Shown here one piece after another: positions 28,781 to 35,095 of a stretch of DNA of 39,450 nt (positions are counted from its first letter, which is position 1; every line of letters starts with the position of its first letter). A model generated the notes under the pieces. The model saw only the letters and a list, made by a program, of their open reading frames with translations. It did no database searches and was not told the DNA's origin. Position numbers and translations under genes: made by a program. This stretch comes from an uncultured bacterium (GTDB lineage Bacteria > SAR324 > NAC60-12). The DNA lies in NCBI GenBank assembly GCA_964010765.1, contig CAXGMD010000023.1, positions 1-39,450 of the forward strand, read 5' to 3'.

Positions 28781-30432
28781 CGTATTCCGGTCGGTTTTCC
28801 GCCGACCAGAAACCTACCTTTCCGCTTTTCGCTATCTCTGAATTCAACGTGCACATCTCTCTTTTTCTTCGCCGCTTGCTGCTTGCCAGTAGCTGCCTGC
28901 TCCTACTGAATACCTCCCTCTGGGCCCAAAGCAACTTCATTCCTCTAGAGAAGGGAGACTACAAAGAACTCGAAGAGCGCCCCACTTACGCACCAGTCCT
29001 CGAAGTCGGTGGTTCCTACCGACTCCGTAATCGATGGATTGATGCGAGCCCAGAGCCAGAAACTCCAACAGGTTTCCCAAATGCCGGTACACTCTCCTTT
29101 GAGCAAGATCTGAGGATCTTTCTGCGCTCAACTGCACACCGCTCAGCTTCGATTCAGCTTGAGTTGGCAACAGCCCAGGCTCCTTTCAACAACGCTGACT
29201 TGCGTCCACCAGCAGAGCGACCAAATGCCCCTGATTCGCAGGACGTTGATCTGGTGGCTCGTCAGGCCTACCTGGAGTTTCGTGCGAACCCTCGTGATCA
29301 GTTACGCATTGGGAAGCAGGAACTTCGTCTCGGTGATCGTCGTGGCAAGGTTTTCAGCGGATTGTTGACCGGTATCGCTCAGCAATGCACAGCAGGTAGC
29401 TTCTGTTATGAAGCCGGTGCTCTGAAGCTGCAGGATGATACAGCAGACTGGCTGTACACCCTCTCCTTGGACTACCCACTTTTTTATGAGCTTGATGCAG
29501 CTGGACAGCCTGAGAATGTGATGCGTGTCGAGGTTTTTCGAATCATCTACACAGAGCGGAACATTCCACTTGGACGCAACAACGCTCCTGGATTGCGACT
29601 CAGCAACGGAGACTTGGATCGCTTACGAGGTACTAGTTTTGCGAATACTAATAGCTGCTCATCAGAGTTGAAACGCCAGGCAGTCGTAGGAGGACAGGAT
29701 TGTACCCCAGTCCATTTCGATGCGACCAGCCAGGATTATTATGGGGTACGTTTCACGTGGAACACTCCGAGCTGGCGTTGGTATTCCGACCTGCTTGGCA
29801 ACCAGGGGAATCGTGCCTACTACAGTTTAGGGCCAAATAACGACTATGGACAGTCACTGGGAAGTTACGCCGTAGCCGGAGTGGCAACGGAGCATGAGCT
29901 GTCTTATCTCTGGGACAATCATCAGGTAACAGGCCTGTTTCTCTATGCCAGCGGTGATGAACAATTGGAAGATGGTGGGTCTATCGACAACACGGGTCAG
30001 AACTACCAGCGAAGCATTCGTGCCTTCCACGAAATCGTTCCGGGCACATATCGAGGAACAAACTTTTACTTCAACGGTGGAAGTCCAGATTGGAAGAGTG
30101 GAACCGGATTGGGCCACACGATCGCTAACACCCAAATGCTTGGTGCTCGTTATCGTTTCACTGTCGAGGCCTCGGAGACATTCTACGAGGCTGGGTTCTA
30201 TTACCTGGACCACGTGAATCCGGTGATGACATCATCAGGTGGAAAAGCTACCCACATTGGTATCGAATGGGATAACACTTTCTCCTGGAAGTTGCGGGAC
30301 TTTGTGACCTGGGACCTGGAGTTGAATTTCTTCCGACAAGGAAAGGCATTCCGCTACGACGACTACCAGCCTTCCGTTAGTGAAACAGGTTCTGCCACAC
30401 ACTTCGCCAGCCGAGTTTACTATTCTTTCTGA
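28777..30432 (+). CDS. Outer-membrane beta-barrel protein, alginate-export (AlgE)-like
   Basis: Signal peptide (possible GTG start at 28849), RQAYLEF and LRIGKQELRLG motifs, amphipathic strands, C-terminal YYSF. Confidence 0.65.
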   Translation: MTYSGRFSADQKPTFPLFAISEFNVHISLFLRRLLLASSCLLLLNTSLWAQSNFIPLEKGDYKELEERPTYAPVLEVGGSYRLRNRWIDASPEPETPTGFPNAGTLSFEQDLRIFLRSTAHRSASIQLELATAQAPFNNADLRPPAERPNAPDSQDVDLVARQAYLEFRANPRDQLRIGKQELRLGDRRGKVFSGLLTGIAQQCTAGSFCYEAGALKLQDDTADWLYTLSLDYPLFYELDAAGQPENVMRVEVFRIIYTERNIPLGRNNAPGLRLSNGDLDRLRGTSFANTNSCSSELKRQAVVGGQDCTPVHFDATSQDYYGVRFTWNTPSWRWYSDLLGNQGNRAYYSLGPNNDYGQSLGSYAVAGVATEHELSYLWDNHQVTGLFLYASGDEQLEDGGSIDNTGQNYQRSIRAFHEIVPGTYRGTNFYFNGGSPDWKSGTGLGHTIANTQMLGARYRFTVEASETFYEAGFYYLDHVNPVMTSSGGKATHIGIEWDNTFSWKLRDFVTWDLELNFFRQGKAFRYDDYQPSVSETGSATHFASRVYYSF

Positions 30433-30445
30433 ATCAAAGCCGACA

Positions 30446-31030
30446 ATGCGACAAGTCAGCAAACAACGAAACACACGTGAAACTAAAATCCAACTGACGA
30501 TCAACCTGGATGGCAGCGGTAAGGTCGCTGTGCGCTCCGGTATCGGCTACCTGGATCACATGCTGGAGCAGTTAGCCTTCCACGGCTTGTTTGATCTGGA
30601 ACTTCAGTGTGAGGGAGATCTTGAGGTAGATTGCCACCACACGGTCGAGGACATCTCTCTGACCTTGGGGGCTGCCGTTCTTGAAGCGCTGGAAGACAAG
30701 CAGGGGATCGTTCGCTACGGCCAGATGTATGTGCCGATGGACGAGACCTTGGTGCGTACTGTGCTGGACTTGAGTGGTCGGCCAGATTTTGTGTTCCAGG
30801 GTGAATTTCGTCAGCCAGCGATCGGTGCACTGGATACCCAGATGATCCCACACTTCTTCAAGTCCTTTGCGATTGCCTCGAAGACCACTCTCCACATGGC
30901 AATTCTGTACGGAGAGAATGACCACCACAAGTGTGAGGGATTGTTCAAGTCCTTCGCCAGGGCCTTGCGACAAGCCACGGAGTTGGACCCAAGACGCGCT
31001 GGTGTCACATCAACGAAGGGCGTGCTGTGA
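30446..31030 (+). CDS. hisB: Imidazoleglycerol-phosphate dehydratase
   Basis: RNTRETKI, GYLDHML, DCHHTVED, PMDE, NDHHKCE, STKGVL; ATG 30446. Confidence 0.96.
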   Translation: MRQVSKQRNTRETKIQLTINLDGSGKVAVRSGIGYLDHMLEQLAFHGLFDLELQCEGDLEVDCHHTVEDISLTLGAAVLEALEDKQGIVRYGQMYVPMDETLVRTVLDLSGRPDFVFQGEFRQPAIGALDTQMIPHFFKSFAIASKTTLHMAILYGENDHHKCEGLFKSFARALRQATELDPRRAGVTSTKGVL

Positions 31031-31635
31031 GCCTGAGTGTGATCATCGACTACAAAGTCGGTAATCTGCACAATCTCAAAAACGCTTTGGACTACTTGAA
31101 GTTGCCGGCTTCGATCGTGGAAGAGCCGGAAGCGGTCCGTCAAGCAGATCGAATTCTCTTCCCTGGAGTAGGTGCCTTTGGCCCAGCGATGCAGCATCTT
31201 CGTGATTCTGGAATGCTGGAGGTGATGGAGGAGAAGGTCCAGTCTGGCGCTCCGCTATTAGGGATCTGTGTTGGCGCTCAGTTGTTGATGGAGCTGGGTC
31301 AGGAAGATGGTCCGCATCAGGGCCTGGGATGGATCGCTGGAGAAGTCAGCCGCTTTCAGCACCAACTCAAGATTCCACAGATTGGCTGGAACGAGGTCGA
31401 GTTCCGCAAGCCCGATCCATTATTTCAGGGATTGCGTGACCGCAGTCACTTCTACTTTGTGCACTCCTACCACCTGCGGCCCAATGATCCAGAGGTCGTG
31501 CTGGGTGAAACGGAGTACGGCTATCCTTTTGCCTCGGTTGTGCGCAAGGATAACGTCTGGGGAGTGCAGTTTCATCCGGAGAAGAGTCAGCAAGCGGGTC
31601 TGCAGCTACTGCAAAACTTCTGCACCTTGACTTGA
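31027..31635 (+). CDS. hisH: Imidazole glycerol phosphate synthase glutaminase subunit
   Basis: FPGVGAF, GICVG, YFVHSY, QFHPEKS; GTGA overlap with hisB. Confidence 0.96.
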   Translation: MSLSVIIDYKVGNLHNLKNALDYLKLPASIVEEPEAVRQADRILFPGVGAFGPAMQHLRDSGMLEVMEEKVQSGAPLLGICVGAQLLMELGQEDGPHQGLGWIAGEVSRFQHQLKIPQIGWNEVEFRKPDPLFQGLRDRSHFYFVHSYHLRPNDPEVVLGETEYGYPFASVVRKDNVWGVQFHPEKSQQAGLQLLQNFCTLT

Positions 31636-31755
31636 GTGCAACTTCTCCAGTAGCTTCGACCAAGGTTGCTTGGACAACCAACCTACTAAAAATTACTCAT
31701 AGGGCCGTCCATCTGGGCAGTCTTTTCCACTATAACGGCCAACCCGAAAGGCAGC

Positions 31756-32187
31756 ATGGCATTGGAACGAACTCTCTCGATCATCAAGCCCGATGGCGTC
31801 AAGCGTAACTTGATCGGCCAGATTTTTTCTCGCTTTGAAGCCAACGACCTGCGGATTGTCGCAACCAAGATGCTACACCTCTCCCTACGTGAAGCCGAAG
31901 GTTTCTACGCAGTACACCGAGGACGCCCCTTCTACGGAGAATTGACCGAGTTCATGAGTTCAGGGCCAGTCGTGGTCAGTGTGTTGGAAGGTGACAACGC
32001 CATCAATCGCCACCGTGACGTGATGGGGGCCACCAACCCGGCCCAGGCTGCAGAAGGAACAATTCGTAAGGACTTTGCCCTGAGCATCGGTGAAAATACA
32101 GTCCATGGTTCTGATGCCCCAGAGACAGCAGCAACAGAGATTGCCTACTTCTTTGCGGAAACCGAGATCGTCAACAGCGCTGGTTAA
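31756..32187 (+). CDS. ndk: Nucleoside diphosphate kinase
   Basis: [31 protein letters not shown]. Confidence 0.98.
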
Positions 32188-32304
32188 ACATACTGGATGA
32201 GAAAATCTATTCTTGTTGGAAAAGAACTGGTTTTCTTACCAAAAATTCGCTACGTTGCCGGCTCAGAATTTGAATTTCATCAATAATACCTGTTCCAGAA
32301 ACCT

Positions 32305-32457
32305 ATGACCGAAACGAAAAAAGCATTCCGCCTCCTCTTTGTTGGAGTAGTGGTCAGCATTGCCGTAGGAGTCTTCTCCGTTGCGGTGTTGTTGCCGATT
32401 TTGCCCGACATTGATCGAGACCGGTACCCAAAGAACCTGCAGCAGCAGGGTAACTGA
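32305..32457 (+). CDS. Small (50 aa) single-pass membrane protein, not in ORF track
   Basis: Hand translation MTETKKAFRLLFVGVVVSIAVGVFSVAVLLPILPDIDRDRYPKNLQQQGN*, with a terminator-like hairpin downstream. Confidence 0.6.
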   Translation: MTETKKAFRLLFVGVVVSIAVGVFSVAVLLPILPDIDRDRYPKNLQQQGN

Positions 32458-32524
32458 TTCCTTGGTTGAATCCCATGGAGGGATGCCGTCGGTCTGGGAA
32501 TTTGAAAAAGATGGAGAGTCTCCG

Positions 32525-32546
32525 CCTGCGCCCGCAGGTTTTTCTT
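32525..32546 (+). terminator. Putative intrinsic terminator
   Basis: CCTGC-GCCC-GCAGG followed by TTTTTCTT. Confidence 0.5.
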
Positions 32547-32657
32547 GTGTTCTGATAAAAAGTTTGGCGGCAATTCAGAAAAATGATTTTATCAGAAATC
32601 AGCCTGTCTGAATACCTCTTGACCTTTCTCTTGAATCCAAGATACTTTCCTTCTTTG

Positions 32658-32880
32658 TGGCCTGATCCTTGTCGTGCGCTTGCGAGGAGCACGGACGAAA
32701 GGGATTGGGCGCGTTCTGTTCGCGCAGTTCCAGCGAGGTCGCTGCCAGCAGAATCGATCAGGCGGGACGAGCCCGTGGGATGTGGGCAAGCTCGGAAAGA
32801 TGACAGACGCCTTGGACAGCCCGTCCAAGCGCCAGAATCCTTGGCCCCCCTGCGTTGGTTTCGTCTTTCGACCGATTTTC
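32658..32880 (+). ncRNA. Candidate structured non-coding RNA of unknown family
   Basis: About 64% GC over 32661-32850 versus about 36% in the preceding 100 nt (hand count). Multiple nested helices. TTGACC..GATACT promoter-like signal just upstream. Strand is inferred from that promoter. Confidence 0.5.
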
Positions 32881-33123
32881 TGGTTTTAAAAGAAAAACCT
32901 GTGTTTGGCATGAACATTGTAGCATGTGAGTTAAGGAGCCCGGAAAACGGAAAGCCACTTTGGCAAGAGGCTGATTTTGCTTCTCCTTTTTCGGCATTCA
33001 CTTACAGTTGCAAGGCCGGCCCAAAGCACCTGTTTTAAAAGATGTCGACGAAAGTTGACTGCTTGTCCCCTGCTGCCAGGCGGGGCGGGCAACCAACCGA
33101 TTCCTAACTTTGTAAGGAGTAGT

Positions 33124-34308
33124 ATGAAAAAGTTTAAAAGCCTGATGTTGGCCGCACTCGCTTCCGCCGCATTGGCAGCCCCTAGTTTTGCTGATGGTCA
33201 CGGTGGCCCAAATCTTGGGATTACAGGCATCAGTGGTGAAGTAGTTTATGAACTGCAACAATCCAGTACCAGCCCAGACGAAGGTAATTCAACCAGTGTG
33301 ATGGACGCCGAGGTTGGAGACGTGAACATTTCATTCAAAAGTGACTTTTATCAATTCTATTTTGAAAGAGATGATGAAGGTTCCTTGGATAATAGATTGA
33401 AAATTGTCCCAAGTATGAAAAGTGGTGACAATTATGTAAAAGCTGTTGGGGAGATAAAAGGACTCTTTGGTGATGCTGGTTCAGATGCTGGCCCATACGG
33501 TGATGTTTTCGTCGAAGGCGGAAACCAGTCCGTATATGTGAAGGTGGGTACTTTTGGATCAACTGAATACTATGGCAACGGTATGGGCGTTTCCCGTGCC
33601 AGCCTGGGTAATGGTGTCGATCCGGACGGAGTATTTAAGAACGGTGAACACTTAGTTATCTCTGGCTTCAAGGGTATTGAAGTTGGTGTTAATGCTGGTG
33701 ACATCAAATTTGAAGTAGCTTTGCCATGGATGAATTCTGGTGATTCTTCCGCTTACGCACTGACTTCCAGCAAAGATCAAACAGTCAACGGTACCGCAAT
33801 CGCTAAAGGTGACAAAGTTGCTTCGAACATTACTGGTGTTCGACCGGGGGTTCAGTTTAGTGCTGGTGATGTGAGCGTCAAAGCAATTGCTTACAGTCTG
33901 TCGATTCAAAAGCAGAACAGTGATATCGATACAGATGAGATGTCTCGATCAGGAGCCCAACTTGTAGGAAGCTTCAATGCAGGTTCCGCTACGATCGGAG
34001 CATTTTACAGCACTGCGACCGAAAAAGACGGCAGCACAGACGTTACTCCAACAGCAGGTGGAGCAAATGTTACTGTGGCGCTTGGAAGTGGGCAGAAGGT
34101 AGGAGCTTCATTTGACACCGCTAATAATGGTCAAGACGATGCTGCTGAAGTTACTTCAACCCGTTTCTCTGCTTCTTACCAAATGCCATTCTTTGTTGAA
34201 GCACTGTCGCTGAAATTGGGTGTGGGTACCTCGACCGAAAGCTCTGACACAGACGCCTTGGCCGGTTCCGCAAGTTCTATGGAAGCTGAGTGGGCATACT
34301 CATTCTAA
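33124..34308 (+). CDS. Probable major outer-membrane porin
   Basis: AAGGAG SD before ATG 33124, signal peptide MKKFK...PSFA, Gly/Ser/Asp-rich amphipathic strands, C-terminal WAYSF, strong terminator. Confidence 0.8.
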   Translation: MKKFKSLMLAALASAALAAPSFADGHGGPNLGITGISGEVVYELQQSSTSPDEGNSTSVMDAEVGDVNISFKSDFYQFYFERDDEGSLDNRLKIVPSMKSGDNYVKAVGEIKGLFGDAGSDAGPYGDVFVEGGNQSVYVKVGTFGSTEYYGNGMGVSRASLGNGVDPDGVFKNGEHLVISGFKGIEVGVNAGDIKFEVALPWMNSGDSSAYALTSSKDQTVNGTAIAKGDKVASNITGVRPGVQFSAGDVSVKAIAYSLSIQKQNSDIDTDEMSRSGAQLVGSFNAGSATIGAFYSTATEKDGSTDVTPTAGGANVTVALGSGQKVGASFDTANNGQDDAAEVTSTRFSASYQMPFFVEALSLKLGVGTSTESSDTDALAGSASSMEAEWAYSF

Positions 34309-34339
34309 AAATCAGTTAAGCTGATTAGTTCCCTTAAAG

Positions 34340-34379
34340 ACGGGATCGTTCGTTTCTGCGAGCGATCCCGTTTTTTTTT
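34340..34379 (+). terminator. Rho-independent terminator of porin gene
   Basis: ACGGGATCGTTCG...CGAGCGATCCCGT stem followed by a long T run. Confidence 0.9.
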
Positions 34380-34524
34380 GCCTTTTGACCAGATTTCCCC
34401 AAATTTGCCCACCTGTTGCAGCGAGGGATCTAAGATAGCTGTTTCCCATTGAACTCGGACTAGCCAAGCGCTTTATTTTCCGCTAGGCTTGTTTTATTTC
34501 CTTCTGCTAAACTGTTTGACATTC

Positions 34525-34992
34525 ATGGATTCCAAGGACCTGCGCCAGGTCTTCGGTCGGTTCGCCACAGGAATCACGGTGATCACGACTCGCACACCAG
34601 AAGGAGAGCAATACGGGGTAACGATCAATTCCTTCACCTCTGTTTCGCTGGAGCCCCCCTTGGTTTCTTTTGCGCTTCAGCGGAGTTCGCCAATGGGAGA
34701 GCACATCCGGCGATCTGGTGGATATGCCGTTAATATCTTGTCGGCAGATCAACAGGAGTTATCAAATCACTTTGCCAGTGATAAACATCGGCAGCCTTTT
34801 ATGGACTGGCCGCTGCTGAACGGTCCTGCGAGTCAACCGCTGTTGTCGGGTTGCTTGGCAGTGCTCGAATGTCGACTTTGGCAGGAATACGATGGGGGCG
34901 ATCACGTCCTGTTACTGGCAGAAGTACTGGATTGTCAAGCGTTTGAGGGTCAACCTCTACTTTACTATCGGAGCCGTTATGCGACGCTATAA
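34525..34992 (+). CDS. Flavin reductase family protein (HpaC/RutF-like)
   Basis: LRQVFGRFATGITVIT, NSFTSVSLEPPLV, GGDH, PLLYY; ATG 34525. Confidence 0.9.
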   Translation: MDSKDLRQVFGRFATGITVITTRTPEGEQYGVTINSFTSVSLEPPLVSFALQRSSPMGEHIRRSGGYAVNILSADQQELSNHFASDKHRQPFMDWPLLNGPASQPLLSGCLAVLECRLWQEYDGGDHVLLLAEVLDCQAFEGQPLLYYRSRYATL

Positions 34993-35095
34993 TATGGAAA
35001 TTGAGAAAGGATTACCGAAGAGCGATGGCTGCTTGCCATTGAATTCGGGGCAAGATGCCAAAATGCAACCGACTCCAGAGGGCATTGTTGGCAGG

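Follow-up and report, generated by a model that had tools for sequence, protein, structure and literature searches.

A conserved GC-rich RNA element of one SAR324 genus as the candidate 5′ half of a structured porin mRNA leader

In mRNAs of the ompA type, a 5′-proximal hairpin can protect the message from decay that depends on the 5′ end. Porin-regulating small RNAs (sRNAs), such as MicF of enterobacteria and Yfr1 of marine cyanobacteria, are antisense-acting molecules of about 60–100 nt that end in a terminator. The CsrA-sequestering RNAs of the CsrB/RsmZ type carry many GGA motifs in hairpin loops, and 6S RNA folds as one long, interrupted hairpin around a large central bubble. In a marine microbe, a riboswitch adjoins a porin gene, as described in one report (PMC12379486). 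Here we describe a GC-rich element at about 32655–32890 in a genome of marine SAR324, an abundant uncultured ocean lineage, upstream of an ORF (open reading frame) for a porin-like outer-membrane protein (33124–34308). The window, in which all coordinates are given, is the whole contig of 39,450 nt (G000:C23), and the features lie on the + strand. The element matches no described RNA family, and we classify it as a structured leader or cis-regulatory RNA of one genus.

Our preferred explanation, which we hold with slightly more confidence than doubt, is that 32655–32890 forms the 5′ half of a roughly 470-nt structured, cis-acting leader of the porin mRNA. The remainder would be an additional non-coding stretch of about 235 nt, which runs from the element to the start codon and ends at 33123. 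A preliminary description of the element had proposed a functional, structured RNA, either an independent sRNA or a cis switch for the porin. The comparative data support a functional, structured, non-coding RNA of the + strand, while the independent sRNA fits less well than a cis-acting porin leader, because contigs from RNA libraries bridge the element and the gene and because conservation and structure continue undiminished over the rest of the way to the start codon.

Conservation was expressed as identity to the genome studied (G000, the reference), averaged over six congeners (the main clade) and given separately for G001, a single distant congener. The element core (32675–32870) was 97.5% identical in the main clade, as compared with 97.6% at codon positions 1+2 and 77.0% at codon position 3 of the upstream gene ndk, 82.4% in the spacer at 32458–32618 and 77.4% in the element's first 28 nt (32647–32674). 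Since the identity of the core matches that of ndk codon positions 1+2, purifying selection acts on the core with the same strength as on sites where a change alters the amino acid. The promoter-like site 5′ of the element (32619–32646), the tail (32871–32890) and the proximal leader (32950–33123) showed main-clade identities of 97.6%, 96.0% and 98.6%, respectively. Against G001, the core as a whole was near the neutral level (49.5%, as compared with 48.3% at ndk codon position 3, 44.7% in the spacer, 53.6% in the first 28 nt and 92.7% at ndk codon positions 1+2). The block of hairpin P2 (see below), the tail (95%) and the promoter-like site (78.6%) were still conserved there, and the proximal leader was 66.1% identical. 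Conservation was not locus-wide, as protein identity in the middle of the porin was only 46–52%, and DNA identity in the downstream flank was 85–89%.

Protein coding was rejected for either strand. Stop-free frames cross the element on both strands in 7/7 genomes, which is expected for GC-rich DNA; between G000 and G001, all six frames showed similarly weak similarity (E 1e-4 to 4e-6), none being preferentially conserved, and indels of 1, 2, 2, 3, 23 and 5 nt break the frame. A hand count of the variable columns of the main-clade alignment revealed no period of three. The preliminary description had named codon-like conservation of an overlapping ORF as a point that would speak against an RNA, and in this check no frame was found to be conserved.

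The fold of the element was taken from the RNAalifold consensus of 15 distinct sequences, and its pairs were counted on that same alignment. It comprises a 5′ hairpin with internal loops, P1 (32662–32708; extended to 32660–32710 in the minimum-free-energy (MFE) fold of G000), a long hairpin with an apical CC-AGCGA-GG, P2 (32710–32756), a hairpin P3 (32763–32794), and a domain P4 (32795–32869), which is closed by GAAAGAUGA/UCGUCUUUC and contains hairpins at 32811–32829 and 32831–32845. These are followed by a U-rich conserved tail, GACCGATTTTCTGGTTTT, at 32870–32888. In this fold, 98.1% of the cells were paired and 13 pairs were changed on both sides, as compared with 2.1 ± 1.0 both-sided changes in 500 column shuffles (0/500 reached 13) and only 0–4 when the partners were slid by 1 to 3 columns. 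Seven of the 18 pairs of P1 were changed on both sides, with 98.1% of cells paired; the pair 32668/32702, for example, is C-G in 9, U-G in 2 and U-A in 4 of the 15 sequences, a variation that lies within the main clade. P2 also has 18 pairs, of which 13 were invariant and 1 was changed on both sides, with 99.3% of cells paired and G-U pairs kept. Of all blocks, this one shows the highest sequence conservation across the main clade and G001; as it hardly varies, the alignment speaks neither for nor against P2. In P3, the inner stem is compensated in G001 (G-C to C-G and C-G to U-A), and the outer 5 pairs are lost there. P4 is variable between lineages, G001 having a 23-nt deletion and only one inner hairpin, and all five variable columns of P4 in the main clade fall at unpaired positions. 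At the 10 variable paired columns of the main clade, pairing is retained in most cells. Separate MFE folds of G000 and G001 gave the same three 5′ hairpins, though the sequences of P1 and P3 differ, and in both the 3′ domain is closed by an A-rich/U-rich stem. The tail, which is 95% identical in G001 between flanks of about 50%, forms only 4–5 weak pairs in the MFE fold, and might serve as a processing site or a protein-binding site. As for the strand, the 137 G-U cells speak for the + strand, where 98.1% of the cells pair as compared with 85.8% when read as the − strand, a comparison that is biased because the fold was predicted on the + strand. Taken together, the conservation, the compensatory changes, the lack of a conserved frame, the presence in RNA-library assemblies and the lack of an Rfam match support the view that the interval acts as a functional, structured, non-coding RNA of the + strand.

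The supported fold differs from that of the preliminary description. The GC content reported there was correct, with 121 G/C among the 190 bases of 32661–32850. This is the maximum of all 190-nt windows in the contig (mean 93.8, sd 9.3), 0.04% of which reach 121, all at the element; the preceding 100 bases hold 38 G/C rather than 36. The eight arm pairs listed were all found in place, six as perfect complements and two with the bulge or mismatch noted for them. As structural evidence these helices do not exceed chance, as neither the number of arms nor the folding energy goes beyond shuffled controls: there were 27 perfect arms of at least 5 bp, as compared with 22.4 ± 3.8 in 200 shuffles, and an arm of at least 8 bp occurred in 32% of the shuffles. 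The MFE of 32650–32890 was −93.6 kcal/mol, as compared with −90.1 ± 4.7 in dinucleotide shuffles (z −0.75), and 45/200 shuffles were as good. The z-scores were 0.02 for the minus strand of this stretch and −0.55 for the 5′ 142 nt of the element alone; the only exceptional stretch by MFE was 32790–32905 (z −2.30; 5/200 shuffles folded equally well). Over the 15 distinct sequences, the earlier fold as a whole did worse: pairing held in 89.4% of the cells, and both partners had changed in 2 pairs. Its enclosing helix 32660–67/32756–63 has two positions unpaired in 7/15 and 11/15 sequences, and the end pairs of its GCGCG/CGCGC helix are unpaired in 7/15 and 8/15. Its alternative pairing TTCTGTT/AGCAGAA, located within P2, and its hairpin CTTGGAC/GTCCAAG both belong to the RNAalifold fold. 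The proposed competing pairing 32676–82/32826–32 lies in sequence that does not vary within the main clade, and G001 has lost its 3′ arm. In G001, compensatory changes preserve the pairing of P1 and of the inner stem of P3.

Nowhere in the window did an Rfam covariance model reach its gathering score. The stretch 32400–33200 gave 4 weak matches at E up to 10, all outside 32602–32884 and far below the gathering scores. A match to L20_leader at 32885–32994 on the − strand (E 0.17; 20.8 bits vs gathering 58.7) lies outside the element and was taken as chance. A literature search found no report of an SAR324 sRNA, and in the titles, abstract openings and some passages of the papers found on SAR324 and porins, there was no such RNA leader.

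By blastn, the element is present in seven of the eight other species genomes of the genus, six copies being 94–97% identical over the full or nearly full length and that of G001 being 77% identical over a 61-nt core; among 32 genomes searched from 24 other genera, it is present in 0. With a covariance model built on the element's 5′ 142 nt, 88 genomes of the phylum yielded 8 strong matches, all in this genus; the one match outside it was partial (E 0.3). The porin was detected in 8 of 45 family genomes including G000, that is, in the same seven of eight congeners as the element and in no other genus of the family. The congener without the element, G008, is also without detectable ndk and porin matches, which suggests that its locus is probably unassembled. 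Downstream of ndk in 22 family loci of other genera, we found no porin, no motif and no nhmmer match below E 0.4. Two pattern scans of public genome and metagenome collections returned 65 loci, 31 of which were true homologues according to nhmmer. All of these were of two known sequence types, and the other 34 loci were chance matches in unrelated taxa. Together with the genome copies, the homologue set amounts to 38 sequences, 33 of them distinct. One public contig (L101) begins with 46 bases that are unrelated to the locus and joined to position 32683 of the element; they resemble a sequencing-adapter remnant.

The preliminary description had noted TTGACC..GATACT just 5′ of the element. The pattern scan recovered it as TTGACC-16-GATACT at 32619–32646, the only sigma70-like site reported in 32100–33300, from which a start near 32653–32655 is predicted. 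TTGACC and AGATAC are invariant in 28/28 tabulated sequences, including G001 despite its diverged spacer. We infer this start site, and any processing at the tail. The terminator that had been proposed near 32880, a weak hairpin with TTTT, was not recovered, as the pattern scan reported no terminator-like site in 32850–32900. The element stretch was found in 20 public runs listed, 14 of which are recorded as RNA libraries. When mapped on 31000–35000, contigs of four RNA-library runs, from four studies, extend over the element, and two contigs (X1 record 4, 32641–33476, and X2 record 10, 32306–33167) connect it with the porin start. The contig breaks at 32897–32932 coincide with variant positions (32911 and 32928–32929), so that they are assembly bubbles and not transcript ends. 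No contig of the four runs lies over 31000–31669 (hisB/hisH); hence these runs provide no direct control for DNA carry-over, and this gap is not evidence.

The alignment contains a sigma54-like motif, TGGCATG-N4-TTGT (TGGCACG in other species), at 32906–32920 on the + strand. In the form TGGCAYG-N4-TTGT it is kept in both clades, in G001 among diverged flanks, and rpoN is present in the genome (C65:441–920). The motif has GT at −12, as compared with the consensus GG-N10-GC. In the genome, the strict sigma54 consensus was found 0 times; for the loose motif there were 4 occurrences, as compared with about 7 expected by a hand estimate assuming equal base frequencies. RNAalifold pairs the motif with 33007–33021, with one-sided changes only, and we leave undecided whether 32906–32920 is a sigma54-like motif or the 5′ strand of an RNA helix. 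TGGCATG-N4-TTGT also occurs on another contig of this organism (G000:C68:17766, − strand), about 230 nt upstream of a gene with a twin-arginine-like signal; the stretch from this motif to the gene has stop codons in all three forward frames, and the motif may be another sigma54-type promoter.

The proximal leader (32950–33123, + strand), delimited by conservation and RNAalifold, contains further hairpins. A 6-bp GNRA hairpin at 33044–33059 has the loop GAAA in G000 and GCAA in G001, and a CCCC/GGGG hairpin at 33060–33091 shows one compensated pair, C-G to U-A. Closest to the gene, AUUCCU (33100–33105) pairs with the ribosome-binding site (RBS) AGGAGU (33115–33120), and the pairs of this RBS hairpin are kept in all 7 sequences except one cell. 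The gene product had no match in Pfam or NCBIfam. The language-model clusters closest to it are porin-like (score 0.96), including one in which 96% of the members have Porin_2; this prediction, a lead and not proof, points to a porin-like outer-membrane protein. The amino-acid identity among congeners is 46–52%, between flanks with 85–96% DNA identity on either side. The hypervariable middle, at about 33200–34150, lies between a conserved signal-peptide/leader arm and an ordinary downstream arm, and G004 and G005 each hold two porin alleles. The contigs with the second alleles (L111 = G004:C11 and L114 = G005:C210) end 23–90 nt before the start codon, inside the shared leader. This pattern looks like strain-level allele replacement, as expected of a surface protein under diversifying selection.

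According to the preferred explanation, a transcript from the predicted start would carry P1–P4 and the U-rich tail and then the proximal half up to the porin start codon at 33124, and the leader would act in cis, setting how stable the porin message is and how it is translated. As in the ompA leader, the 5′-proximal P1 may protect the message from decay, and the downstream hairpins together with the RBS hairpin may tune the access of ribosomes; we thus propose a stabilizing and a translational role for the leader by analogy. Several points weigh against the cis leader. The folding energy of the element is unexceptional, the pairs were counted on the very alignment that had yielded the fold, and a single divergent genome, G001, contributes most of the both-sided changes, so that the independent compensatory events are few. 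In 3/28 sequences, and also in the alignment rows of G005 and G006, the −10 hexamer ends in C instead of T. A conserved sigma70-like site together with the sigma54-like motif would also suit two transcription units. The RNA-library data are assembled contigs, from which neither transcript ends nor strand nor level can be read; a contig that spans two features need not be one transcript, and RNA libraries can contain DNA. We therefore take the bridging contigs to hint at continuous transcription without proving it. Two contigs from RNA libraries of different studies (X2 record 10 and X8 record 27) start at 32302–32306, at the start codon of a 50-amino-acid (50-aa) ORF upstream of the element, and the real start may therefore lie upstream of that ORF. 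Finally, the stabilizing or translational mechanism is itself drawn by analogy.

Among the alternatives, a separate gene for an sRNA of about 230 nt, or an sRNA processed out of the leader, seems to us rather unlikely, though worth weighing. Such an RNA would be transcribed from TTGACC-16-GATACT, would end or be processed in the tail at 32870–32888, and would work either in trans or on the message of the porin, which would have a proximal promoter of its own. The promoter-like hexamers that are conserved even in G001 with its diverged spacer would fit this, as would the tail GACCGATTTTCTGGTTTT, 95% conserved to G001 among flanks of about 50%, and the conserved sigma54-like motif between element and porin in a genome with rpoN. 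A dip in conservation to 89.5% at 32891–32949 also parts two highly conserved blocks. However, the 3′ end has no terminator-like site and a tail hairpin of 4–5 weak pairs, RNA-library contigs bridge 32890–32930, and the sigma54-like motif is no commoner than the chance estimate (4 vs about 7). In addition, Hfq was not found with PF17209 in this 92%-complete genome, which is not proof of its absence. The same motif would gain importance if control were exerted on the DNA, with the GC-rich block providing an enhancer or upstream activating sites for a sigma54-dependent porin promoter at 32906–32920 and the AT-rich tail acting as a bending region. We consider this improbable. The conservation of TGGCAYG-N4-TTGT in both clades, the presence of rpoN and the similar motif about 230 nt upstream of the gene on C68 are compatible with DNA-level control, and P2, with its imperfect dyad symmetry, could just as well be a site where a protein binds. 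Yet about 200 bp are near-invariant, far beyond the needs of activator sites, and the tolerated changes keep RNA pairs of the + strand (C-G/U-G/U-A, A-U to G-U), which would be meaningless for DNA sites. Moreover, the −12 element is GT instead of GC, and the genome shows no instance of the strict consensus and no enrichment of the loose motif.

A riboswitch or other sensor, in which P1–P3 would sense a ligand, temperature or a protein and relay their state to the downstream leader and the RBS hairpin, appears very improbable. It would account for the very high conservation of the P2 core and apical loop in both clades, and for the conserved hairpin that sequesters the ribosome-binding site. 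Against it, none of the described Rfam riboswitch classes matches the element at E up to 10, the hairpins are serial without a closing multi-stem junction, and the element is confined to one genus. The RBS hairpin is local and 230 nt away, with no alternative pairing found that links it to the element, and the competing pairing 32676–82/32826–32, being invariant or deleted, is uninformative. We give the least credence, and very little of it, to the explanation that the stretch has no function of its own and is the upstream homology arm for the exchange of porin alleles between strains and species. The porin middle does resemble a replaceable hypervariable cassette with conserved flanks, and the two alleles in G004 and G005 are found on contigs that end in the shared leader. 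But the downstream arm is merely 85–89% identical, upstream conservation drops to 77–82% within 30–60 nt, and the variation within the element is patterned by the fold.

Upstream of the element, the window contains hisB (30380–31030), hisH (31027–31635) and ndk (31756–32187; Pfam NDK, E 8e-57), followed by the hydrophobic 50-aa ORF (32305–32457), all on the + strand. The ORF is 97.8% identical in the main clade at codon positions 1+2 and 81.7% at position 3, and Pfam and NCBIfam searches with it gave no match. It is possibly the first cistron of one transcription unit with the element and the porin, and may be a leaderless one in a unit that reaches into the porin. The ends of public contigs form a loose cluster at 32291–32306, with three starting at about 32291–32305, and are otherwise scattered. 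As a weak hint, the transcript might begin at 32302–32306, so that the ORF, the element and the porin would share a transcription unit. A terminator-like hairpin with a T-run lies 3′ of the ORF at 32524–32549 (+ strand, pattern scan); its arms change compensatorily in the G001 alignment, and the RNA-library contig X2 record 10 crosses it. Two further features were observed between ndk and the ORF. G001 has roughly 270 additional bases right 3′ of ndk, before the ORF, which the other species are without. A conserved motif, AAAGRACTGGTTTTCT, at 32222–32237 has CTGGTTTT in common with the element tail at 32870–32888, and this motif and the U-rich tail are both retained in G001. The repeated CTGGTTTT (at 32229 and 32877, conserved at both) was dropped as a candidate, since it occurs genome-wide at only 2–4 times the mononucleotide expectation.

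About 470 nt of non-coding sequence are kept as tightly as non-synonymous sites before a porin with an approximately 50%-divergent middle, which marks the region before the porin as a control region under strong constraint. The element is a candidate new RNA family, though a narrow one (one genus), and through metatranscriptome assemblies it offers a handle on the regulation of a major surface protein in SAR324. A further-reaching claim, that a new lineage-specific regulatory RNA, as a sensor domain or as an sRNA freed at the U-rich tail, controls the hypervariable major porin, seems doubtful to us at present. If it were true, an RNA controller that hardly varies would be coupled, in SAR324, to a surface protein on which diversifying selection acts.

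Among described systems, the element is like 6S RNA in its size (about 180–230 nt), its GC-richness and its own promoter-like site, and the preliminary description had considered a divergent 6S RNA; it differs in having four serial domains instead of one long hairpin with a central bubble. This candidate (RF00013) was rejected, as there was no match to it in 32400–33200 at E up to 10 and the canonical 6S RNA of the genome lies on another contig (G000:C53:19517–19696; 62.9 bits, cut-off 46.4). The multiple hairpins, the GGA in the P1 and P3 loops of G000 and the presence of csrA in this genome (C13:17513–17671) are reminiscent of CsrB/RsmZ. A CsrA sponge was likewise rejected, as GGA is not enriched (7, as compared with 4.4 ± 1.8 in 2000 shuffles, 12% of which reach 7), and the P3 loop of G001, as read from its MFE fold, is without GGA. 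With MicF and Yfr1, the element shares that a non-coding RNA is genetically tied to porin expression, but it is co-oriented with and directly upstream of the porin, has no terminator and no identified antisense target. The riboswitch described in PMC12379486 is likewise a cis RNA element with a porin gene in a variable genomic region, whereas here there is no match to an Rfam riboswitch model and no ligand-linked architecture was identified. The leader of Escherichia coli ompA is about 130 nt long as compared with about 470 nt here, is unrelated in sequence, and differs from the present element in that the latter is found in one SAR324 genus only. P1 begins at 32660–32662, 5–9 nt past a start that is predicted only, and what the two have in common is a structured leader before an outer-membrane protein gene, with a hairpin near the predicted 5′ end.

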